Source: a virus
Taxonomy: Duplodnaviria > Caudoviricetes
DNA length: 64,000 nucleotides
IMG/VR virus record: IMGVR_UViG_2882828558_000007
Location: 1-64,000 of that record
Direction: 5' to 3' (one strand)
Translations under genes and position numbers: made by a program
Shown here: piece by piece, positions 12,354-58,207 of the stretch
Numbering within the stretch: position 1 is the first letter of the stretch
How the letters are laid out: every line of letters starts with the position of its first letter
Notes under the pieces: model-generated
Database searches by the model: none
Told to the model about the DNA's origin: nothing
What the model saw: the letters and a program-made list of their open reading frames with translations, nothing else

Positions 12354-12383
12354 ACCTTAGTTCTTTTTTACAAATTTGTCAAG
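12354..12383 (-). promoter_or_regulatory. Sigma70 promoter with ACAAATTTGT operator (copy 1)
   Basis: TTGACA-17-TAAGGT; palindrome at 12370-12379. Confidence 0.75.
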
Positions 12384-37032: not shown

Positions 37033-37062
37033 AAGGTAGTCAATATTTACAAATTTGTCAAG
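37033..37062 (-). promoter_or_regulatory. Sigma70 promoter with ACAAATTTGT operator (copy 2)
   Basis: TTGACA-17-TACCTT; palindrome at 37049-37058. Confidence 0.75.
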
Positions 37063-40271: not shown

Positions 40272-41892
40272 TCACGTCCTCCGCACCTTGCGCTATCCGC
40301 CCAGTTGACGGCATTGCCGCACCCAACGGGCCGCCACCGCCAACACTCCGCCCATAGGGGATCGGAATCCCCTTTTCGTTCATGTCGGTGATCTCTGCGG
40401 CTATTTTCTCTCGCGTCACGGCAGCGTCGCGACCCATAAGTGCCGCTTCGTCTTCCGTCGATGACAAGCCAAGCTCAATCCGCTTGGCCGAAGCCATGGT
40501 CGCCTTGTAGTCATCCGCCACGGGCTGGGCTGGGCCAGGCCACTCGGCATTGCAGACAAGCTCACGGTTGGCCGCGAATGCCGCGTATCCACCCTTGAAC
40601 GGTATCTGATCCATGCCGATCTTCTCGTCGAGCCAAGACTCGTAAATCGCCTGGCAGAACGGAGCAGCCACACGCTCACGACGACGCGTCACGATCGGCC
40701 ATACCGACGACATCGCCATGCGCACCGACGAGTAGTTCGCGTTGGAATGATCCATCGCGAAAGCCTCAAAGGTGATGCCAAGCCGACGGGCCATCTCTCG
40801 CTGAAGGTTCTGCGAGAACGGTATGTATTGAGAGCCCGGCGTTGCCGCCGTATGCATGTGGAATTCTTCGCCCGGACCGAGGTGGTTGATCCGCCCGTGG
40901 TCCGACATTGAGATGCCGTTTTCCTTCAGCGCGTCGATTCGGTTGCCCCAGACATCCAAAAGGTCCGCAGCGAGATCCGGGTCGTCATCCTCAAGCGTCC
41001 TGATCGCCTCGAAAGCGGTCTCGGAAGGCTCCGGCGACTTGATCGTGGCGGCAAACGCCGTCTGCAGCAGGGCTGTTGTAAGGGTCGCGTCGGCCAACTG
41101 GTCGTACTGCGCAGCAACTTTCAGGATCGGCGCAAGGACAGAGATGCCGCGAACGCTGTCGGGATTCTCCCCGCGGTCCATAACGTGGATCACCCGCCGC
41201 AGCGGGCCGTTCCACGCGGGCACGTCGAAGTCAAAATCCTGCCCGTTCTCGCGTCCGATCAACCTGAACTTGGTTGGCGACCCGCGTTCTGGGTCAAGAA
41301 AGATGCCCTGATCAAGACCGATGAATTCATTTGTCTCGCGTTTCAGGCGATGAGGCGCCACCAGCGACACTTTCGTGCCCGTTTTAATGCCATGCCGCCT
41401 GCGCATGGCTCTTGGCATGAAGTCAATTAGACCGATGGCCTCGCCGCTAGCGAGATAATACCTGATAACTCCATCAAGATGCTCGGCGAGCGTCGTCGTG
41501 CCGTTGAGGCTGTATTCCTGCGGTCGCCAGACGTGCAGATACCACTCATCCTCGACCAGCCTCGACCACGCTGTGATTTCAGCCGGCGTCCAGCCAAGTT
41601 TTGCCAACTTCGGCCTTGCCGACAGCTTAAGTTCATCACCAATCGTGTCGGTGATGATCTGGTCGACCGCACCAGCGATCCATCCGCTATTGTGGATGAA
41701 ATCCCAGGCTAGCGCTGAAGCACGCTCGGCCGACTCTCGAACGCTAACCGCGCCATCACGAGTGACGGCGCGGCGCATTGTCAGAATGCCGGAACTATTG
41801 TCGCGCAGGTACTGCGCTCGGACGCGCTTAACCGCGGGAGCGGCCACCTTGACGCCGGGGGCTTTCACCCGGATCTTTGGCTTGTCGCTCAT
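40261..41892 (-). CDS. Portal protein (lambda family)
   Basis: RGISVLAPIL, LLQTAFAATIK, DHSNANYSSVR. Confidence 0.9.
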   Translation of the reverse strand: MSDKPKIRVKAPGVKVAAPAVKRVRAQYLRDNSSGILTMRRAVTRDGAVSVRESAERASALAWDFIHNSGWIAGAVDQIITDTIGDELKLSARPKLAKLGWTPAEITAWSRLVEDEWYLHVWRPQEYSLNGTTTLAEHLDGVIRYYLASGEAIGLIDFMPRAMRRRHGIKTGTKVSLVAPHRLKRETNEFIGLDQGIFLDPERGSPTKFRLIGRENGQDFDFDVPAWNGPLRRVIHVMDRGENPDSVRGISVLAPILKVAAQYDQLADATLTTALLQTAFAATIKSPEPSETAFEAIRTLEDDDPDLAADLLDVWGNRIDALKENGISMSDHGRINHLGPGEEFHMHTAATPGSQYIPFSQNLQREMARRLGITFEAFAMDHSNANYSSVRMAMSSVWPIVTRRRERVAAPFCQAIYESWLDEKIGMDQIPFKGGYAAFAANRELVCNAEWPGPAQPVADDYKATMASAKRIELGLSSTEDEAALMGRDAAVTREKIAAEITDMNEKGIPIPYGRSVGGGGPLGAAMPSTGRIAQGAEDVNAD

Positions 41893-43862
41893 CGATAGGC
41901 CCCCCATCGCTCCCGCTTACGGCGAGGTGTCCGCTCCTTCGGCTTCCCGTCTCCGGGCACCTCCGTCGCGTTCTCCTGGCTTGGCGAATTGTCGTTCGCT
42001 GGCTTTTCTTCGGCCTTGCGGGATTGTCTGCGCGGCGTTTTATCAAGTTTGTTCGGTAGAGACATTCGTGCCGCCAGTGCCAGTACCAAGCAGTCCCACG
42101 CCTCATTTCGGGCGCCGGCCGTCTTGGTTTCCCATTTTCGCGTCGTTCTCCCGCCCACCGTCTTGGTGACCGCGTGCTCTGACGTCAGCTGCGTGAAGTA
42201 ATCGGAGCTCAGCCCCACGGCCGGGAAGTGAATAGCCCGGGGCGTTGGATCGTCCTCGTTCGGAACGATTGCAAGACGAGACGAGATATCGTCTTTCGCC
42301 GTATCGACGCCGATGATGTACGGCTTGTCGCCGCTATTCTTCGTCCGGCTGGCCGTCTTTGGCCAAATCATGCGCGGAGCCTTTGGATCGCGATTTCCGC
42401 GACCGATGCACGCATATATTCGGCGACGCTTACGGTCTCGAGCGAACTTGTAGACCATCTCCGATCGGTGGCCCGCGCTATCGATGCAGGCGGCTTGCGC
42501 GAAGAGTTTGCGCCCGTCGTCGGTCTCGCACGGCTCTCGGATCAGTCTGTCGAACTCGTCCCATATGGCCAGCTTCGACGTGTCACCGTTGATCACCTCG
42601 TGGCGAGCGACCCAGCTTTCTCCGTTGGCGCCCCAGGCAACAAACGTTGCCTCAATGCGATCATCCTGAGTGTCCGCCCCGACCGTAACCATAATGGCCC
42701 CGTCAGGTAGCGTCTCCCAGTTGTACGGCTCGCATCGGCTTCTCAGGACGTCTGGATCGGCAACATTCACGACTTCCTTGTGCGGCAAGCCGAGCACGAG
42801 GTTGACGAACGTCTTCTTCCTCAGAGGGTCCTTGTAAGCCGCCAACCACTCGACGGCCAACGCTGCCCATGACGCATTTGGGAACAGGCTGTAGGCTGCC
42901 CAAATATGGAAGCCGGCATGTCCGACGGACGGCTTGTCAGCAATCCACTCCCCGCCGTTGATCATGGCGAGTTTGTCGTGCTCCTCAATGCGGCAACCGT
43001 TCGCTTCGCAGCGGAAGTGTGCCGTTTCCGTCAGGTGGTTGCCGCCCTCATCCTTATCCCACTTGAAGTTTTCCCACTTCAGGCGCTGCTTCGTCCCGCA
43101 ATGCGGGCATGGGACGTGGTAATGGCGCTGGTCGCTTTCCTCAAACGACTTCTCGATGCGGCTGATACCCTGCACCGTTGGCGTGCTGCCAAGGATAATC
43201 TTGCGATTCCAGAACGTTTCTGTTCGCTTGGTGCCGAGCGAAATCTGATCGCCCTCATCGCCCGCGCCGTTGGCTGGATAGCCGTCGACCTCGTCAAACG
43301 CGACGATGCGGACCGTAATACGACGAAAACCGGCCGGGCTGTTCGCCCCAACGAAGGATACCGACGCGCCGTTGCGAAAGATGCGCTTGTCGACCTTCTG
43401 GTTCGCCGCCTTCGAGTTCAGATCGCCTGCGATTTCAGCCAGGACCGGCGTATCGCGCAGCATCGGCGCAATTTCCGTCTGGCTATAATCTCGAGCGTCG
43501 CTTTCCTTAGGCTGCACAATCAGGATAGGCGCTGGGTCCTGGTGGATGTAATATCCGACCATGTGATCCAGCATCTTTGTATAGCCCACTCGCGCGCTCT
43601 TCATGACCGTGATCTGACGAACAGTCGGATCGGTCACAGCGTCGAGCATTCCGTCCTGGTAACGGAAGGACTTGAATTTGCCAGTGTCTGCGCTGGTTTC
43701 GCGAGACAGGAATGCGTATGTGTTGGCCCACTGGCTGAGCGTGAGCTTGGGTGGCGGCTTTAGCGCTTCGCTACGGGCTCGGCGCAACCTCGTCAGCAGA
43801 CGGGCCGAACCTGTGCTGTAGCGACTTGCGGAGTTCTCCGAAGTCTCTTTGCCCATCATCAA
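41889..43862 (-). CDS. Terminase large subunit (GpA family)
   Basis: KSARVGYT, FDEVDGY, GSTPT, CPHC, DTQDDR, DSAG, NEAWDC. Confidence 0.95.
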   Translation of the reverse strand: MMMGKETSENSASRYSTGSARLLTRLRRARSEALKPPPKLTLSQWANTYAFLSRETSADTGKFKSFRYQDGMLDAVTDPTVRQITVMKSARVGYTKMLDHMVGYYIHQDPAPILIVQPKESDARDYSQTEIAPMLRDTPVLAEIAGDLNSKAANQKVDKRIFRNGASVSFVGANSPAGFRRITVRIVAFDEVDGYPANGAGDEGDQISLGTKRTETFWNRKIILGSTPTVQGISRIEKSFEESDQRHYHVPCPHCGTKQRLKWENFKWDKDEGGNHLTETAHFRCEANGCRIEEHDKLAMINGGEWIADKPSVGHAGFHIWAAYSLFPNASWAALAVEWLAAYKDPLRKKTFVNLVLGLPHKEVVNVADPDVLRSRCEPYNWETLPDGAIMVTVGADTQDDRIEATFVAWGANGESWVARHEVINGDTSKLAIWDEFDRLIREPCETDDGRKLFAQAACIDSAGHRSEMVYKFARDRKRRRIYACIGRGNRDPKAPRMIWPKTASRTKNSGDKPYIIGVDTAKDDISSRLAIVPNEDDPTPRAIHFPAVGLSSDYFTQLTSEHAVTKTVGGRTTRKWETKTAGARNEAWDCLVLALAARMSLPNKLDKTPRRQSRKAEEKPANDNSPSQENATEVPGDGKPKERTPRRKRERWGAYR

Positions 43863-44388
43863 TCGCCAACTCGTTCAATGCGGCAATCACTTCCTCGTCG
43901 ATGATGGCCTTAATCTCTTCGGCCGACTTCAAAACGGCAGCCGAAGGCGCCACTTTAGAGCCGATACCCAGAAGCCTGTTCCTAACAACTGCGTATTCGC
44001 TGGCCACCGCCACGATTACGTCCTCGATTTCCACGACTGCGCCGCTTTCGCGCTCGAATTCGAGCTGGCGAAGAAGGGCAGCGTAGTTTTCTTTAATGCG
44101 CTCGGCCTCAGCCTTCGACCACTTTGCGCCGCCCGGTGCGGACACCAGTTCTTCGGCGGCGGCTTCAAGGCTTGTAGTGTCCGCGACTACGTCCGCGCCC
44201 CGATCCGTTGCGGACACAGGATGCTCCCCGCCCCGCCAATCCAGATCCAGATACCGAGGATCGATTGTGCCGTCGGCCAAAAGCTTGATATGCTCGGACT
44301 TCACCTTCCTGCGGACGACCTTGTCATCGCAGCCGGCGCGGCGGGCAAACTCCCGAATTGAAATCCCAAGAGCCATGCCCGCGGACAC
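43771..44388 (-). CDS. Terminase small subunit
   Basis: SIREFARRAG HTH; coiled coil; overlaps TerL. Confidence 0.8.
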   Translation of the reverse strand: MSAGMALGISIREFARRAGCDDKVVRRKVKSEHIKLLADGTIDPRYLDLDWRGGEHPVSATDRGADVVADTTSLEAAAEELVSAPGGAKWSKAEAERIKENYAALLRQLEFERESGAVVEIEDVIVAVASEYAVVRNRLLGIGSKVAPSAAVLKSAEEIKAIIDEEVIAALNELAIDDGQRDFGELRKSLQHRFGPSADEVAPSP

Positions 44389-44497: not shown

Positions 44498-45274
44498 CTA
44501 GCCTGCGCGTACGAACTTGGATGGGTCGTTGTCATTTGATGGCTGCGGAGCGATCACTTCGACCACGCGCCATCCGCCACGCACTGTGCCCATCCTAAGC
44601 TTGGCCAAGTTGCTGGAGTTTCCGCTGGTCAGTCTGCCGGATTTAACCATGTAACTCTGGCGCGCAGTTATCCTCTCGCCAGAATTCACATTCTCATAGA
44701 CGCGCTCAACCCAGTCTCGAACCGGAACTTTTTTACTGTTAGCGTTCCTCGAGCATTTGGCCGACTGCCGCGCCTCAAACTCCCGCCTGGTCATCTTCGT
44801 TAACGACCAGCCGCCAGTCACACGGGACGCATCCCGCACGATGTAGTTAACGCGATCACGATTGATGCCGGAGTAATCAGAGAACTCAAAGCGAGTGCCA
44901 GCGAACAGGTCGCCATCAATGTGGTGGAACTCGTAGATGGTTAAGTCGACGTTCGTCGCGCCCCACCCCTTATTGGACGCAGCCCACTTCCTGCGCGCCA
45001 GCCCGTAACTCTTCCGTGCGCGGTTCAATTCGTATCGCGGGCACTTACTCATCATAATGAGCGCCGCCCATGCATCTCGCCCACCGTGAATATGGGCGAG
45101 CAGCAAATGCGCAAAGTAGTGATCCTCTGGCGTCAAACGAATGAGGTTGTGGTGGTTATCTCCGCCACCCATCCAGCGAGGCACGATGTGATGCATCTCG
45201 GTCACATCTGTGTCGTCGGGAGGGTTCTCGCGACGATCCTTAAGGAAATCTAGATAAACCCTACGGTACTCCAT
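44498..45274 (-). CDS. HNH homing-type endonuclease
   Basis: EMHHIVPRWMGGGDNHHNLIRLTPEDHYFAHLLL. Confidence 0.85.
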   Translation of the reverse strand: MEYRRVYLDFLKDRRENPPDDTDVTEMHHIVPRWMGGGDNHHNLIRLTPEDHYFAHLLLAHIHGGRDAWAALIMMSKCPRYELNRARKSYGLARRKWAASNKGWGATNVDLTIYEFHHIDGDLFAGTRFEFSDYSGINRDRVNYIVRDASRVTGGWSLTKMTRREFEARQSAKCSRNANSKKVPVRDWVERVYENVNSGERITARQSYMVKSGRLTSGNSSNLAKLRMGTVRGGWRVVEVIAPQPSNDNDPSKFVRAG

Positions 45275-45379
45275 GGTCTCGACTCCATGTCGACCTCATG
45301 GAAATGGCGAGGAGCAATGAAGCCCCTCGCCACCACAACGACTTGCGAGAGGTCGAGAATCGCAAGTGTTCAGTTTTTC

Positions 45380-45946
45380 TTAGGAAAGCGCCCCACCAGC
45401 CAACCTGCGCAGGTAGTGCGTGACGCGCACATCAAGCGCGTCCTTGCCCCTATCGAAGGTTGCAGCCGTGTTGCCCGTGGTCGCTTCGGTCGGCAGGACC
45501 ACGTCGGACTTGACGACCTGGAACTTGTTCCCAACACGCCGGAACACCTGACCGTTCCAGTTGCCCTTGACCACGCGGTTGGGCCACCATCCGGCCTTCA
45601 TGAACGTGCCGGCAAAGACCTGACGCTGATTACGGGGCGCTGCGCTCACACCCTTCCGGGTCTCGCGCGCCTTGAAATACTTGAGCCTGATCTCACCGCC
45701 CTTGACGGGGATCTCGTAGGCCAGCGTCGCAGGCGTGGACCGTATGCGCTTCTTGACCGCCTTGGCGCCCACTCGCTTGGCGAGGCCCGACTGGTCAGCC
45801 AGCGCCCTGCCCGTGGCAGTGGCAGCCTTGGCGCCCGTATCGTTGATTGCGCGGCTGTAGATCGTGCGAGCCTTGCTGTCGCCGAGTTCACGAGCAAGCT
45901 GCGTGAAGCGGCGTACGCCGTCGCCTGTGATCGATACGACTAGCAT
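45380..45946 (-). CDS. Minor tail protein Z-like / tail completion protein
   Basis: Basic protein; SRAINDTG..A, GVSA, F.GTF...GQVFRR. Confidence 0.6.
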   Translation of the reverse strand: MLVVSITGDGVRRFTQLARELGDSKARTIYSRAINDTGAKAATATGRALADQSGLAKRVGAKAVKKRIRSTPATLAYEIPVKGGEIRLKYFKARETRKGVSAAPRNQRQVFAGTFMKAGWWPNRVVKGNWNGQVFRRVGNKFQVVKSDVVLPTEATTGNTAATFDRGKDALDVRVTHYLRRLAGGALS

Positions 45947-45961
45947 GGTGGTGCCTGCAGC

Positions 45962-46037
45962 TGGTTGCGGAGCCCCGGAGTCGAACCGGGTGTCTCGTGG
46001 TTATGAGCCACGCGAGATACCGTTTCTCTAGCCCGCA
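45962..46037 (-). tRNA. Phage tRNA, anticodon CAT (Met or Ile2), encoded CCA
   Basis: Cloverleaf: D stem GAGA/TCTC, anticodon stem CGTGG/CCACG with loop CTCATAA, T arm CCCGG-TTCGACT-CCGGG; acceptor stem has one extra nucleotide. Confidence 0.85.
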
Positions 46038-46044
46038 GAGTAAG

Positions 46045-46600
46045 CGCACCACGAACGCCCGGTGCCGGGAGAGCGCATGTAGCGCTGAAACCAAAAGCGG
46101 CTGGGAGCAAGACGCGGTTTATCTATCCGCCGCTCAACCAGCCGCACGATCGCCATGTCGCGAGAGGAGGCGCGCCACAGCAATAAGATGCCCAACGGAA
46201 TGCCGCGTCCAAGCCGCTGGCATCTAGCCGTAGATGGGCAAAGGAAGACGACACGGCAGACCTCACAGGCTGCACTGCGCTCGGGTTGCGATCCCGTGCC
46301 GGATAGCGTGTCGACTGATCAGCAGGCGGCTCCCATACGGTGGGCCTTTGGGTATCCGGGCTTATGCTTCCGCGACCGGACCTGCCAGATAACGACGAAG
46401 CGCACCGTTGCTACGCCCGTGGGCGAGACTGCCGTGTTGGTCGCTTCGTCATGCGAAGATGGACACACGCGCAAGTCAACGTGCATCGGTCGAGTGGCGT
46501 CCGCGCTTGCACTGCGGCTGATAGCCTATGGCCGCAACCATCACTGGTCGGCAGCATCTTCGCATAGCAAGGAACGGGCGGGCTTCCCCATCCTTCTCAG
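46045..46600 (-). ncRNA. Candidate large structured non-coding RNA in the late leader
   Basis: Nested perfect helices of 11, 9, 8 and 7 bp, several GNRA-like loops, G-U pairs that favour the minus strand; no credible ORF. Confidence 0.5.
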
Positions 46601-46746
46601 GAGTTACAATTTCCTGCCTTGCCAATAGTTACCCGTCGCTCAGAGGCAGCAACTAAGTGCAGCATGTCAACGGGGCGCCCTCGGGCGCGTGGATGTGGGA
46701 AGCAATGCTATCCCTTCAATTAGTACGCACCCACGCGCCACGAAAT

Positions 46747-47673
46747 TTATGCCGCTCGCAATTTTCTTCCTTGGTCGATCGAAACGAGGATTTCAGCCAG
46801 CTCGACCAGTGCGGCCTTGCCCGCCTCAAGTGCTTCCGACTCCTTGAAGCCCAGTCGCAAACCGATCGACTTCAAGTTCCCGCGCGCCGCCACTTCGTCG
46901 ATGATCCCGGCCGCATCACTGCCGCGCTCTTCCGGCGCTTCCCACATGACAGCACCGCTTGACGAATTGCCTGTCGGGCTGCACACGCCGCCCATGAACG
47001 ACGCGCCCTCTGCTACGGCATCAGGACCGAGCCGTGCCGCATGCGGCAGCTGCCCTGCCGGGACGCCGCCATCCACGCCGTGGGCCTGCAGCTCCTTCCT
47101 GGCTGCCTCAACACCCGGCAGCGGGTCATACATCGGCGCGAGCGCCGGAAGGCCTGAGAAGTCACGATGGCAGTGCGCTGCGTGCATCGGCGATGGCGTT
47201 GTGGCCTTCGTCGCAAGGTAGAGCCAAGGCGTGCGTTCCTTGCTGGTCTTCTTCTCGGTGCTGCGCGCCCTATCCGTCGGTTTGAGCTTCTTGCCCTTCT
47301 TCGTGACACCCCACTCTGTAAGCCTGCCGTGCAGGAACTTCAGGCTGCCGATCTCGGTGCGGCCCTTGCTCGTGTGGGCCACAGGAAGCACGTTGCCTTC
47401 CTTGTCATGCGACGCTGCCATGATCTCGCCGATGGTCGGGCGGATTTCCTGCCTCGTCGGCTCGACATCGACGAACCAGTTCGCTGCAGGTCGAGGAAGG
47501 GCGGCGGCGAGCGCCGGAGCGAGTTCAGGGTGGTTGTCGTACAGCCAGCGAAGAGCGGGCAGCGTCCCGCGGTATCTCGGGTTCTGTGGCTTGTTGTCGT
47601 TCGCGGCTTTGAGCGGCTTCGGCGGGGCGTTGATGGCAGCGTGTAGCTGCTCGGCCAATGAACCTCTTCTCAT
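46747..47673 (-). CDS. Putative late transcriptional regulator (308 aa)
   Basis: Start moved to MRRGSLAEQL (GAGGAG RBS); last gene before the late leader; C-terminal HTH-like NLKSIGLRLG. Confidence 0.55.
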   Translation of the reverse strand: MRRGSLAEQLHAAINAPPKPLKAANDNKPQNPRYRGTLPALRWLYDNHPELAPALAAALPRPAANWFVDVEPTRQEIRPTIGEIMAASHDKEGNVLPVAHTSKGRTEIGSLKFLHGRLTEWGVTKKGKKLKPTDRARSTEKKTSKERTPWLYLATKATTPSPMHAAHCHRDFSGLPALAPMYDPLPGVEAARKELQAHGVDGGVPAGQLPHAARLGPDAVAEGASFMGGVCSPTGNSSSGAVMWEAPEERGSDAAGIIDEVAARGNLKSIGLRLGFKESEALEAGKAALVELAEILVSIDQGRKLRAA

Positions 47674-47712
47674 GCTGTCTCCTCGATGCCGGCAGGGTGT
47701 GGTGGTAACAAA

Positions 47713-47742
47713 AATATAGTCCAAATTTACAAATTTGTCAAG
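47713..47742 (-). promoter_or_regulatory. Sigma70 promoter with ACAAATTTGT operator (copy 3)
   Basis: TTGACA-17-TATATT; palindrome at 47729-47738. Confidence 0.8.
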
Positions 47743-48226
47743 GCGAGTTAGCGGCAAGCCAACCGCGCACCAGCGCGACAGCCTTGTCGGCTGCCTCACC
47801 GACACTTGCGAACCGCACGACCTCGACGTGGTGCCCAAGCCGGGCCAGCGCCGCATGCCGATCGACCTGCGCTGGAGACAGCCTGCCTTTACCGACCTTG
47901 TTCTCAAACATGCGCAGACGGCCACCAGAGAGGTAAACGCGCACGTCGGCCTCACCGGGCGTCATGCCGGCGGCAATCGCTTCCTGCTGCGCCCTGGGGC
48001 CGCGCTTGGCGCTGTTCTGGTCGCCAGCCAGCAGGAACTGCTTTCCGTACTCCGGCATAGCGCGCAGGGCGCGGATCTGCGCCGCCTGGCCTTCCCACTC
48101 CTTCGGCGGGGCGTCGGTGATGGTCACCTTACCGTTGGCGGTGGTGATCTTGACCCGCTTGCCGTTGACGCGGGTCGTCTGCGTCTGCCGGGTGCGGTTG
48201 CTGGCGCTTGTGCTGCTGGCTGCCAT
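47738..48226 (-). CDS. VRR-NUC domain nuclease
   Basis: GMTPGEADV...FENKVGKGRLSPAQ...LARLGH. Confidence 0.8.
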   Translation of the reverse strand: MAASSTSASNRTRQTQTTRVNGKRVKITTANGKVTITDAPPKEWEGQAAQIRALRAMPEYGKQFLLAGDQNSAKRGPRAQQEAIAAGMTPGEADVRVYLSGGRLRMFENKVGKGRLSPAQVDRHAALARLGHHVEVVRFASVGEAADKAVALVRGWLAANSP

Positions 48227-48229
48227 GGG

Positions 48230-48475
48230 GATCTCCTCGGTGGTGGTAGGGGTGGTTATAGGTGGTGGTGTTTTGAGGTGGCTATCCGCTACCCTCCTCC
48301 ACTCCACCACACCACCCTCCACACTAAAGTGTAGGAGGTGGTGGTGGGAGGTGGATTCAATGCGTCGTGGTGTGACTTTCACACCACCTCAAAAACGAGG
48401 TGGTTAGAGGTGGTTGAGGTGGCTAGTTTTGGCCTCTTTCACACCACCTCAAAAGCAAGGTGGTGGGTGGTGGTT
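48230..48475. repeat. CCACC/GGTGG-rich repeat array; candidate replication origin
   Basis: 19-bp direct repeat CTTTCACACCACCTCAAAA at 48376 and 48436; inverted ACCACCTC/GAGGTGGT. Confidence 0.55.
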
Positions 48476-49068
48476 CAGGCTGCTCTTGCGAATTCTCCGT
48501 GGTGCTCTTCGACGGCTTTCAGGTATGCTTCATGGGCTTCCTCTGACTTATCGAAGTATCCTAGGCAAACCTTTGCGCCACCAATCCTGATGTCGGCCCG
48601 CCACTTTCCCTCTGCCTTGTGCCAGCTGACGCCCTTGAAGCCAGACGTGTTATTCGATTTCATATCCGTGTTCATTTGGTTCTGGCTGTTCGTCGCTACG
48701 CGCAGATTGTCCCACCTGTTGTCGGACCTGTTTCGGTTCTTATGATCTATGAAAACTTCGGGAATGGTGCCGGTCATATATAGGAAGGCTAGGCGGTGGG
48801 CTGCATACCTTCCCCCGTCCACTCCGATGTGGATGTATCCATCCCTTGTTAACTTGCCTGCGCGGTCTCCAGCTCGAACTCGCAGACGGTCGACGCGCCA
48901 TGTGAAAATCCCGCTATTCGGATCGTAGAACAGAAGGGACCTAAGCCGATCTGATGTTAGCGGTCCCTCGTGGCGACGATCGAGGTGCGGCCTTCCTCTC
49001 ACCTCGACAACGGCATATCCGGGCAACGGCGAATACTTCTCGATGATTGATTTGATGGCGTGGTGCAT
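48475..49068 (-). CDS. HNH endonuclease with AP2 domain
   Basis: AHRLAFLYMTG...IDHKNRNRSDNRWDNLR; NNTSGFKGVSW...WRADI...LGYF. Confidence 0.9.
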   Translation of the reverse strand: MHHAIKSIIEKYSPLPGYAVVEVRGRPHLDRRHEGPLTSDRLRSLLFYDPNSGIFTWRVDRLRVRAGDRAGKLTRDGYIHIGVDGGRYAAHRLAFLYMTGTIPEVFIDHKNRNRSDNRWDNLRVATNSQNQMNTDMKSNNTSGFKGVSWHKAEGKWRADIRIGGAKVCLGYFDKSEEAHEAYLKAVEEHHGEFARAA

Positions 49069-49283
49069 CACCTGCTCTCCTTGCTGTGTGGCCAATCGGC
49101 GGGGCGGTAGCCCTCGTCATAAGCGGTCATGAGTAGGGCGACGTGCGTGGGGACTGGGCGCGGGTTCTTGGCGCGCTCATAGGTGCTGATCGTCAATGGC
49201 GCTTCGTAGCGCAGAACGCGCGCAAGCTGGGCCTGCGTGAGGCCCAGCCATTGACGGATCGTGCGGAACTGAGTGTTGGTCAT
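49068..49283 (-). CDS. Small XRE-type HTH protein
   Basis: FRTIRQWLGLTQAQLARVL...TISTYE...PVP. Confidence 0.8.
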   Translation of the reverse strand: MTNTQFRTIRQWLGLTQAQLARVLRYEAPLTISTYERAKNPRPVPTHVALLMTAYDEGYRPADWPHSKESR

Positions 49284-49860: not shown

Positions 49861-52134
49861 TCAGGCGGCCTCAGCCGGCCGGACGAACTTTATCTTACGG
49901 TCAAAATGCTTCGGGTCCGGCTCGTCAACGACGGCAAGTATGCCACTCGATATCCATGCGTCGAGAATGGCCTTGACCTTGCGCTTGTCCGCGGTCATGG
50001 CCTTTGCTGTTTCCACATGCATGCCCAACGCTGACGCGAGGACGTACCCGGCCCAGTCTTCAGACTGAGACGACTCGCGGTAATTCTGGTTGGCGAATCG
50101 CACCAGGACTTCCTTGCGCACGTCCGGAGGGACGGCCTCGGCGATCTCCTCCTTGGACGGCCATTTCCACTCAGTCACCACAGGGGCGAAGTCCTGAGGC
50201 TTCGTGAGACCTCGACCATTGCCCAGTGGAACGCCTACGAGGTGACGCCAATCCAGCTTACTGCTTAGTGGGGTTAGGTTCGACTTGCCATAGGTCACGG
50301 AGAAGTACCCGAACCTGTCAGCGCCGTCGACGCCGGCCTCGTTTGCTTGCTCCGGTGACATGCGGTTCAGGACGCGAACCGATCGAGCCGCGCCGATGAG
50401 GGAAACCGCACCTCGAGCGTCTTCGACGGTAGCCTCCCGGTCGGCGACCTTGCGCAGATGGTGGACGATGTCGATCGCGCAGTTCGTGTAGTCAGCGATT
50501 TGCGCCCACAGCTTGGCCACCTTATCGATTGCCCCGTTGTCGTTCTCATTGACGCTGTGCGTCGACACGAACGGGTCCACGATCATCACGTCTATCTTGT
50601 TCCGCTCTATCTGTTCGACCACAGCCTCCACGATAGGTTGCTGGATGCGCACGCCTGCCTTCTTGTCGTCAACAGCGACGACCAGCTCCTGCTCGCGCCC
50701 GCTATCGAGAAACAGGTGCCCCTCGATGTCTTCCGGCTTTAGCTTGTAGTGGATGGCGGCAGCCATGATGCGCCGCTCCATCTCGTCGCGAGGATCTTCC
50801 GCATTAAACACCCACACACGCAGGCGCTCCGCAGGCTTGGTGCCGAGCAAAGTCTTGCCCGACGTCATCGCAAGAGCTTCCGCAAGGCTAAGGCTGGTCT
50901 TCCCCAAGCCGCCGGGGCTGACTGTTACGGACACGTATTTACGGATCAGGTGATTTCCATAGGCGAACTCTCGACGGGCAATGGACTTCGGGTCGATCCA
51001 CTTGAATGCGGTAGCAGTCAGCGGACTATTGTCGTTCGCCGGCTCCTCGTGCGCCGTATCGGTGATCCCGGTCGGGATATCTTCAGTCTCCGGGGCGTCT
51101 GGCTTGGCGCTTTCATCCCGTTCGGGATCATTCTCACCTTCAACGGCGACATCGTACCGCTCGGGAAGCCCCGTCTTTACACGTGCCTTGCGTAGCCCGT
51201 TGGCGACCATGCGCTGCACGTCGACAAGGCGCGTGTTGTCCTGGTGAAAATCCTGCTCCGGCGGATGACGCGGCTGGAGCGCGCCGGCCTTCAGGCCATT
51301 TTCGATGGTTTTGCAGCAGCGAGACCAATCCCTGCCCCATCCACGCGCTACGTCCTGTAGTTGAGCACGCGCTTCCGATTCGGACAGGTGGCCACCGCCA
51401 ACCCACTGCCCGAGCGAGAACGCCGCGTCATTGAGTGCGTTGTTCCGGTTTCCCATCGGCTCTGATGCAAGGTCAGATAGCTCTCTCTCGATCGCCGCGT
51501 CGACATAGACAACATTCGTGGAACTCGCGGCATAGTGCGTGTGGGACGGCGCGGATTTCGGCAATAGCAGGTCGAGCAGCCAGGCCGGGGCGTCGGCGAT
51601 CTCGCGCGTGTCGTCCGCCCACTTGTAGTGTCGTCCATTGGACAGGACGCTGCCCGCCGCAACGACGTAGCCGCCTTCCGACCGGATATCCACGCCAGCA
51701 CCGAGTGCGCCGCGGTTGCGTGTGCCGGCCACGTATTTGAAATAGATGTGCAGGCCGCCATTCGGGCTAATGACGCGCGCCGTCACAGGGAGGGGGCCGT
51801 GCTCCGCCTCCATGTCCGAAAGCCAGGCGAAACCGTTGGCTCCGCCTGGCTTGTTGTCGATGTCTAGCGCGAAGAAACCAGTCGGCGACCCCGTAGGGAG
51901 GCCGATGGCCGCGTCTGGCCAGTCGCTCCACCACCTGTCGATGATGTGCTGGAACTTCGTCGCCTGCTTGAAGCCATGAATCGTGAGAGGTGTTTTCTCG
52001 CCTAGGGTCGTTACTTCGCCTGTATGTCGATCGACAACATCTTCTGCCTCTGAGCGGCAGGGGAATACCGGCCATCCCTGGGAGACGTAGGCATTGGCAA
52101 GTTGATGGGGCGTGGGTTGTGTGGTTTCGGTCAT
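49861..52134 (-). CDS. Bifunctional primase/polymerase fused to a RepA-like (AAA_25) helicase
   Basis: GWPVFPC, IGLPTG...LDID, SPNGGLHIYF, GVDIRSEGGYVV; SPGGLGKTS, IVDPF, HH.RK; start moved to MTETTQP. Confidence 0.9.
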   Translation of the reverse strand: MTETTQPTPHQLANAYVSQGWPVFPCRSEAEDVVDRHTGEVTTLGEKTPLTIHGFKQATKFQHIIDRWWSDWPDAAIGLPTGSPTGFFALDIDNKPGGANGFAWLSDMEAEHGPLPVTARVISPNGGLHIYFKYVAGTRNRGALGAGVDIRSEGGYVVAAGSVLSNGRHYKWADDTREIADAPAWLLDLLLPKSAPSHTHYAASSTNVVYVDAAIERELSDLASEPMGNRNNALNDAAFSLGQWVGGGHLSESEARAQLQDVARGWGRDWSRCCKTIENGLKAGALQPRHPPEQDFHQDNTRLVDVQRMVANGLRKARVKTGLPERYDVAVEGENDPERDESAKPDAPETEDIPTGITDTAHEEPANDNSPLTATAFKWIDPKSIARREFAYGNHLIRKYVSVTVSPGGLGKTSLSLAEALAMTSGKTLLGTKPAERLRVWVFNAEDPRDEMERRIMAAAIHYKLKPEDIEGHLFLDSGREQELVVAVDDKKAGVRIQQPIVEAVVEQIERNKIDVMIVDPFVSTHSVNENDNGAIDKVAKLWAQIADYTNCAIDIVHHLRKVADREATVEDARGAVSLIGAARSVRVLNRMSPEQANEAGVDGADRFGYFSVTYGKSNLTPLSSKLDWRHLVGVPLGNGRGLTKPQDFAPVVTEWKWPSKEEIAEAVPPDVRKEVLVRFANQNYRESSQSEDWAGYVLASALGMHVETAKAMTADKRKVKAILDAWISSGILAVVDEPDPKHFDRKIKFVRPAEAA

Positions 52135-52164
52135 GCTGCTTCCTTGAATTCTGAAAAATACCGC

Positions 52165-52193
52165 TTGATGGATAGGGCCATTGGTCCTAATGT
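52165..52193 (+). promoter_or_regulatory. Sigma70 promoter for the plus-strand small-gene cassette
   Basis: TTGATG-17-TAATGT; AGAGGAG RBS before 52224. Confidence 0.6.
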
Positions 52194-52223
52194 GCTCATA
52201 CCAACACCGCAGAGGAGACAAAC

Positions 52224-58177: not shown

Positions 58178-58207
58178 AACTTAACCGCAATTTACAAATT
58201 TGTCAAG
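58178..58207 (-). promoter_or_regulatory. Sigma70 promoter with ACAAATTTGT operator (copy 4)
   Basis: TTGACA-17-TAAGTT; palindrome at 58194-58203. Confidence 0.75.

Follow-up and report, generated by a model that had tools for sequence, protein, structure and literature searches.

A noncoding, modular leader with the anatomy of an intrinsic terminator ahead of the late genes of a Rhizobiaceae prophage

The DNA analyzed here (positions 1–64,000 of IMG/VR record IMGVR_UViG_2882828558_000007; this entire 64,000 nucleotide (nt) stretch is termed the window) is that of a prophage, which its relatives place in the Rhizobiaceae (Agrobacterium, Neorhizobium and Rhizobium loci; Rhizobium phage RHph_TM3_3_14B). 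The subject is a 709 nt noncoding gap at positions 46038–46746. Every gene around the gap is on the minus strand, which is also the RNA strand of the gap. In the gene direction the region begins with genes annotated as a primase-polymerase (49861–52221), an HNH-AP2 endonuclease (HNH_3-AP2 protein, 48475–49095) and a VRR-NUC-like protein (47738–48382). These are followed by a gene for a conserved 308 amino acid (aa) protein without a known family, here termed the p308 family, at positions 46747–47673, where 47673 is the likely true start. The gap comes next, and directly downstream of it is a tRNA-Met gene (anticodon CAT) at positions 45962–46037, found by ARAGORN and by Rfam (46.8 bits). The first late gene, a tail completion/Neck1-like gene (45380–45946), is 15 nt further on. 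It is followed by an HNH homing endonuclease gene (PHROG 655, 44498–45274), a small terminase gene (43771–44388), a gpA-type large terminase gene (41889–43862) and a portal gene. In this order the gap precedes the packaging and late genes as their leader and lies directly upstream of a phage tRNA. An earlier note on this DNA had placed it in the late leader with a phage tRNA at its side, and both points are borne out by the gene order.

The gap is noncoding and modular, its conserved structure is that of minus-strand RNA, and it includes an element with the anatomy of a terminator; we hold this with high confidence. About 120 related (pro)phage loci were gathered by four routes, i.e. BLAST searches of phage records and of 400 genomes from the family, retrieval of loci via the VRR-NUC protein, pattern scans of IMG/VR and metagenomes, and iterated nhmmer profiles. 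Module counts by locus are from the nhmmer profiles, and the covariation counts rest on the related sequences. What the relatives have in common are short modules of 35–90 nt only. In every locus these are found on the gene strand in the fixed order M0-M1-(M2)-(M3)-(M4)-M5. Modules are present or absent independently of each other, and what lies in between is unrelated sequence, from 50 to over 600 nt in length, as well as tRNA genes. Across loci, the CUCCUC hairpin of M5 is less than 100 nt to about 700 nt away from where M1 ends, and the M1-M4-M5 set spans about 245 nt in phage TM3_3_14B as compared with about 590 nt in the window. Second copies of modules were not found in the window.

M1 (46625–46676) is the most widespread module and was found at 117 loci, 86 of them unique. 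It has an outer helix ACCCR/YGGGU, which in some lineages is ACGCU/GGCGU, and this encloses a hairpin CUGCA-loop-UGCAG with a loop of 5 to 15 nt. Nearly invariant are the unpaired CAUG, the sequence CCNCUGAR and the 3′ tail GUAACUAU. The copy in the window has one U-U mismatch, which is in the inner hairpin. Pairing holds in 94% of cells across 78 sequences, with a covariation score of 0.221 as compared with 0.072 in shuffles (0 of 500 shuffles) and at most 0.044 in slid controls. G-U pairs number 57 and A-C 16. A strict M1 pattern gave no matches in 401 genomes of the order; the copy in the window itself also deviates from this pattern, and the null result means only that the exact M1 word is rare outside the family.

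Upstream of M1 is M0 (20 loci), a hairpin directly after the stop codon. As a hairpin it covers 46684–46743, and as a shared module about 46694–46743; it includes an inverted repeat (46684/46731) that is perfect over at least 9 bp. Downstream of M1 is M2 (46566–46600, 4 loci), a small hairpin AAGGA...UCCUU with 97% identity to genome G020; its copies are too few for covariation. M3 (46319–46387, 10 loci) consists of a GCAGG/CCUGC closing stem around two hairpins and carries the conserved sequence CACCGUAUGGG. The RNAalifold consensus of M3 has 16 pairs, of which 3 show compensatory changes, although only 7 sequences enter into it.

M4 (about 46190–46241; 26 loci, 18 unique) is one irregular hairpin formed by UGCCCA/UGGGCA, ACGG/CCGU, GAUGCC/GGCAUU and GCG/CGC, and its loop GCUUGGA is invariant. 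The minimum free energy fold of the copy in the window is exactly the consensus structure. In M4 the proportion of paired cells is 91.5%, with a covariation score of 0.185 as compared with 0.078 in shuffles (0 of 500) and at most 0.053 in slid controls. There are 5–6 compensatory pairs (RNAalifold gives 5). The TGCCCA/TGGGCA helix listed in the earlier note is therefore real, but the two sub-hairpins that it was said to enclose are not, since M4 is a single irregular hairpin.

M5 was found by nhmmer at 59 loci (about 46092–46175) and consists of a hairpin and a predicted terminator that together cover 46088–46184. The hairpin, M5a, is 36 nt in length (46149–46184) and its apical loop is CCUCCUCU, an anti-Shine-Dalgarno (anti-SD) sequence, CCUCCUC. 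The stem is 13 bp in the window. Pairing in M5a was assessed by folding each sequence separately and by an end-anchored count in comparison with shuffled partners, where the hairpin ends were taken from each sequence's own fold. Forty-one of 43 unique homologs self-fold into an 11–15 bp hairpin with CUCCUC in the loop, and their stems differ. The outer 8 pairs are 91.5% paired, versus 71.6 ± 2.6% when the 3′ arms are swapped among sequences, and there are 26 G-U and 3 A-C pairs.

M5b, at positions 46088–46145, has the stem GCGGCUGG...CCAGCCGC with an inner helix, and this is followed by UUUUGGUUU at 46088–46096. The G+C-rich 8-bp closing stem and inner helix (46097–46145) with the adjacent U-tract represent intrinsic-terminator anatomy. 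In relatives the stem is retained by way of compensatory changes, e.g. GCGCCAGG/CCUGGCGC and GCGGCGAG/CUCGCCGC. The terminator call rests on a custom scan of the loci together with folds: a hairpin of −21 to −38 kcal/mol followed by a U-tract, typically 55–75 nt past CUCCUC, is found at 62 of 82 M1 loci. M5b is thus predicted to be a strong intrinsic terminator, and probably is one.

Compensatory changes are clear in M1, M4 and M5 as judged from the alignments, and a few appear in M3. Among the helices of the earlier note, TGCCCA/TGGGCA (in M4), GCAGG/CCTGC together with TCCGG/CCGGA (in M3) and GCGGCTGG/CCAGCCGC (in the M5 terminator) have compensatory changes in relatives. The modules are RNA of the gene-sense (minus) strand because G-U pairs far outnumber A-C (57/16 in M1, 26/3 in M5), which confirms the preference for the minus strand that had been suggested from the window sequence.

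The leader modules are new RNA motifs. At least M1, M4 and the M5 hairpin with its terminator are missing from Rfam. With Rfam covariance models at gathering thresholds, tRNA is the sole family matched in the whole window, and no known Rfam family was found at 12 loci with partial matches. These motifs are of interest as M1, M4 and M5 are backed by covariation and occur in more than 100 (pro)phage contigs, always behind one protein family, among phage tRNA genes and at the boundary of the packaging genes.

The possibility that the gap encodes a protein was also considered. A 157 aa plus-strand open reading frame (ORF) at positions 46155–46628 is open, and a small ORF could follow the plus-strand sequence GAGGAGG at 46164–46170. 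Two relatives have a 24-codon ORF at a good distance after GAGGAGG, and in their alignment 4 of 6 differences are synonymous. However the 157 aa ORF has no Pfam or other family match, conservation of it is precluded by the large indels between homologous loci, and the substitution pattern fits RNA pairing instead. In the window the frame of the small ORF is not kept: a TAA interrupts it, a start codon is lacking and the ATG that is present falls in another frame. The small ORF was therefore rejected. A coding function is hardly credible and is the least probable of the alternatives; the statement of the earlier note that there is no credible ORF holds in practice.

The same note had proposed that positions 46045–46600 form a single ornate RNA of about 550 nt, possibly a new class, with an 11-bp and a 9-bp helix that abut so as to allow coaxial stacking. 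All of the helices that it listed are present at the coordinates given for them. Three are perfect complements, i.e. the 11-bp helix 46451–46461/46555–46565, the 9-bp helix 46394–46402/46442–46450 and the 8-bp helix 46097–46104/46138–46145. The others are CGACACG at 46249 with CGTGTCG at 46307, TGCCCA at 46189 with TGGGCA at 46235, GCAGG at 46322 with CCTGC at 46381, and TCCGG at 46355 with CCGGA at 46376. Helices are dense, a phage tRNA adjoins, several of the sub-helices are conserved, and perfect inverted repeats are modestly enriched relative to shuffles, with three of 9 bp or more versus 0.48 expected. An inverted repeat of 11 bp or more occurs in 3.1% of 1000 shuffles, and six such repeats are found across the 64 kb.

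Against a single large RNA is the fact that relatives share separate modules only, that the spacing from M1 to CUCCUC varies and that tRNA genes interrupt the region. M1, the most widespread module, is located just outside of 46045–46600. The 11-bp and 9-bp helices form two adjacent hairpin domains in a lineage-specific insert of 170 nt (46394–46565, minus strand), so that the central segment with the key helices is absent from every other locus. About 270 fetched loci and the phage collection gave no homolog of the insert; the single weak match is locus L015, which is without any module. The two helices are therefore beyond a comparative test. The CGACACG/CGUGUCG hairpin (46249–46313, minus strand) is a spacer hairpin that is not conserved and for which no homologs were found. 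As a side observation, the insert contains four copies of a CGAAG/CUUCG core (minus strand) within the 11-bp and 9-bp helices, and therefore alternative pairings between its two hairpin domains are possible.

The outcome of the folding statistics differs between scales. The folding energy of the whole 709 nt gap is inside the shuffled range, with z = −0.79 for the minus strand and z = −1.57 for the plus strand (dinucleotide shuffles, 20 per strand), an outcome that the earlier note had itself named as speaking against its proposal. Structure beyond chance is found only in some pieces by local fold, namely 46184–46247 (M4, z = −3.23), 46088–46185 (M5, z = −2.35) and the 9-bp hairpin 46394–46450 (z = −3.10). 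The 11-bp domain (z = −1.58), M3 (z = +0.5) and the CGACACG hairpin (z = −0.31) are unremarkable.

GOLLD (RF01998) and ROOL (RF03087), to which the region had been likened, are likewise noncoding, structured, prophage-borne and adjacent to tRNA genes. However, cmscan gives no match to GOLLD or ROOL over 45800–46900 even at E ≤ 10, and unlike these RNAs the leader has no conserved architecture of several hundred nt, its modules assorting independently. The large ornate RNA of a new class, with its coaxial architecture as the functional unit, is thus improbable and is largely refuted by the comparative data. The lesson is that dense helices in a G+C-rich leader are by themselves no evidence of a large ornate RNA.

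The leader position is the tRNA island of this phage group. One to six same-strand tRNA genes are present within 1 kb downstream at 59 of the 86 M1 loci. In 17 loci tRNA-Met starts 0–2 nt after the M1 tail GUAACUAU; since the tRNA starts at this distance, M1 must be transcribed there as the 5′ leader of tRNA-Met and does not serve as its promoter. The sharp end of conservation after GUAACUAU appears to be due to tRNA-Met beginning right there. In at least 11 loci a tRNA starts 7–14 nt past the beginning of the terminator U-tract. There is no room for a separate promoter where a tRNA is this near to the U-tract, and such a tRNA would therefore be made by readthrough only. Arrays of co-oriented tRNA genes, up to six in number (Met, Pro, Thr, Ser, Ala, Gly, Trp, Asn), were seen in relatives, e.g. 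at loci L221, L204, L201, L158 and L205.

The positions of the tRNA genes also bear on the possibility that the conserved sequences function as DNA, e.g. as a cos/packaging site, an origin or a promoter/operator array. Conservation breaks off sharply after GTAACTAT in M1, as it would past a −10 box, M1 holds an inverted repeat and the motif TTGCAG-N15-17-TAACTAT, which could be read as a late promoter, and the region is upstream of HNH and gpA-type terminase genes. A tRNA at 0–2 nt after GTAACTAT in 17 loci is, however, incompatible with a −10 box for that tRNA. The helices are maintained by way of G-U pairs, which are A-C on the other strand (57/16 in M1, 26/3 in M5), and the loop inside the M1 “palindrome” varies from 5 to 15 nt. 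Furthermore M1 is conserved across phages whose large terminases are only 34% identical. The abutting tRNA genes and the G-U pairs in the helices rule out M1 as a late promoter, and a cos site is unlikely in view of the abutting tRNA genes, the G-U pairs and the presence of M1 in phages with divergent terminases. A DNA-level element in general is very unlikely.

The gene upstream of the leader is also conserved. In 86 of 86 unique loci the gene that ends 70–95 nt before M1 belongs to one protein family. The p308 ORFs that end just before M1 fall into two clusters (51 and 35 of the 86 loci), and these are homologous (hhalign probability 97.6%, E = 4e-12). The p308 protein has no Pfam, PHROG or PDB-profile match. 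An AlphaFold 2 model has a mean pLDDT (predicted local distance difference test score) of 63, i.e. low confidence, with a C-terminal three-helix segment, and a Foldseek search with the model gave nothing below E = 4. Assignments of p308 to DUF6456 (0.85) or DUF1133 (0.75) were protein-atlas leads that are sub-threshold and were not used as evidence. As side observations, the C-terminal region of about 60 residues is predicted to form three helices that are helix-turn-helix-like, with no significant structural match, and the word AANDNK is found near the N-terminus of p308, with AANDNKK again near the C-terminus in many homologs. AANDNK resembles the start of the alpha-proteobacterial ssrA tag.

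A scan of positions 45300–47800 for a sigma-70-type consensus found a single site, at 47713–47741 (minus strand), upstream of the p308 gene. It has the exact consensus CTTGAC-N17-CTATAT, with the palindrome ACAAATTTGT in the spacer. From 47713 down to 45300, i.e. as far as the late genes, the scan for this one consensus type shows no other promoter, and the terminator lies between the p308 gene and the late genes. The promoter word TTGACAAATTTGT consists of the −35 box fused to the palindrome ACAAATTTGT. It is present in four exact copies in the window (12370–12382, 37049–37061, 47729–47741 and 58194–58206, all minus strand), and with up to two mismatches allowed there are 9 matches versus 0.57 expected. 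The four copies look like a promoter set with a common operator. If the operator is shared, one regulator may therefore control four prophage transcription units.

From the gene order, the modules and the predicted promoter, the gap may be interpreted as part of a transcription unit, of which it would form the structured noncoding tail and leader, with the M5 terminator gating the late genes. We put the probability of this at about 0.6. Transcription would start at the candidate promoter 47713–47741, cross the p308 gene (46747–47673) and then proceed through M0, M1, M2, the insert, M3 and M4. At M5 the polymerase would meet the CCUCCUC hairpin and then the terminator at 46088–46145, which would be the default end. 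The ends of the actual transcripts are predicted ones. Stopped transcripts would carry, or be processed into, small stable RNAs. Whether it arises by termination or by processing, this RNA would contain a piece made up of the hairpin with the anti-SD loop and the terminator. Only by readthrough would polymerase get to tRNA-Met and to the genes for tail completion, HNH endonuclease, terminase and portal. M5 would thus stand as a gate between replication-side and packaging/late gene expression, comparable to tR′ of lambda. There is about an even chance that readthrough of the M5 terminator is actively regulated.

Several points weigh against this interpretation. As the promoter scan looked for a single consensus type, it would miss a promoter directly upstream of the tRNA that is weak or specific to the phage. 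TTGACAAATTTGT is found upstream of the homologous p308 gene in only about 20 of 63 loci. A simple terminator scan omitted M5b, the loop of which is longer than the limit of that scan. The p308 protein is without a recognisable fold, and the roles suggested for M1 and the anti-SD loop are conjectural.

The structure of M5 is also what would be expected of a trans-acting small RNA (sRNA) gene, consisting of M5 or of M4 and M5, with its own terminator; the late genes and tRNA would then be transcribed from a promoter of their own, and there would be no gating. The CCUCCUC loop is almost invariant while the stem is variable, and a hairpin followed by a U-tailed terminator is the usual 3′ module of base-pairing sRNAs. 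At loci where a tRNA precedes M5, tRNA processing would free the hairpin-terminator piece. The best other Rfam matches at E ≤ 10, located at 46050–46188 on the minus strand, are to the sRNAs ar14 (17.5 bits) and CcsR1 (14.9 bits). However these scores, with E about 1, are far under the gathering thresholds of 58.8 and 65.3 bits. No promoter-like site of the one consensus type scanned is present directly upstream of M4 or M5, and in the at least 11 loci that have a tRNA a few bases past the U-tract something must read through. An independent sRNA gene is thus the less favored explanation and is, in our estimation, unlikely.

M5 may be compared with the “cuckoo” RNAs ar14/NfeR1 (RF02344) and CcsR1 (RF02791), which like M5 have a loop CCUCCUC(CC) followed by a terminator hairpin. 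The ar14 and CcsR1 RNAs come from the same host clade (alpha-proteobacterial). M5 differs from them in that it fails the covariance models, has one anti-SD hairpin and not two or three, and is situated within a prophage leader, with other modules ahead of it. A literature search on prophage anti-SD sRNAs in rhizobia found nothing on the M5 element. It is suggested only tentatively that the anti-SD loop acts in trans on ribosome-binding sites; if it does, the hairpin would be related to a class of host sRNAs with an influence on symbiosis, but carried by a phage. M5-like anti-SD hairpins without M1 within 1.5 kb were observed at loci L010, L011, L014 and L016 (genomes G349, G188, G019 and G272, respectively), where no Rfam family was found. 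These may belong to other prophage types or may be host sRNA genes.

With respect to gating by M5, the closest parallel in organization is the pR′-6S-tR′ region of lambda, which is controlled by Q. As in lambda, a regulator-side gene is separated from the late genes by a noncoding stretch with an intrinsic terminator (here a predicted one) at its end, which has to be read through for late expression, and a short terminated RNA is the default product in both, here by proposal. Unlike lambda, the likely promoter is upstream of the 308 aa gene and not inside the leader, and the leader is long, modular and tRNA-bearing. No Q-family protein was found, and p308 has no match in Pfam, PHROG, PDB or Foldseek that would make it a Q-family antiterminator. 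By analogy the leader would work like the Q/tR′ gate, but as no Q-family protein is present it would not be a member of that system.

A possible regulator of readthrough is the combination of M1 and the p308 protein encoded upstream of it, but this assignment is doubtful. M1 resembles lambda nut (boxA/boxB) and HK022 put in being small and structured with invariant unpaired bases, in being upstream of a terminator and in its position immediately behind a conserved phage protein gene. It differs in that it occurs once per phage and not once per operon. M1 is set beside nut and put by description only, and we know of no sequence or structure match between them. An extension of this idea, for which the odds are equally poor, is that M1 and p308 constitute a new RNA-dependent switch for processive antitermination (or processing) in Rhizobiaceae phages. 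The p308 protein, made from the same transcript, would recognise M1 in the nascent RNA by its invariant unpaired bases, so that RNA polymerase could go past M5 into the tRNA and late genes, and the terminated product would be an anti-SD small RNA that damps translation. Such a switch would be an N/nut- or put-like timer that is made of unrelated parts.

To our knowledge gene regulation in temperate phages of the Rhizobiaceae, the hosts of which are nitrogen-fixing and plant-associated bacteria, is almost unstudied. If the proposed gating by M5 is correct, it would make the early-to-late switch of these phages accessible to experiment and might amount to a new antitermination system.

The tRNA cluster of phage T4 contains small stable RNAs (species 1 and 2) of unknown role among co-transcribed tRNA genes. 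The leader shares with it small structured RNAs among phage tRNAs that would be freed by tRNA processing enzymes. The sequences and phage type are unrelated, and in the present case the position is at the early-late boundary, with an anti-SD hairpin and terminator at the end.

Two minor features complete the region. The terminator is joined to the tRNA by a short linker with a hairpin, at positions 46038–46087 on the minus strand, which has a fold z of −1.66 and is also found in locus L141. In addition, the two HNH-type homing endonuclease genes are situated on either side of the leader region (44498–45274 and 48475–49095, both minus strand), the former between the tail-completion and small terminase genes and the latter between the primase-polymerase and VRR-NUC-like genes.

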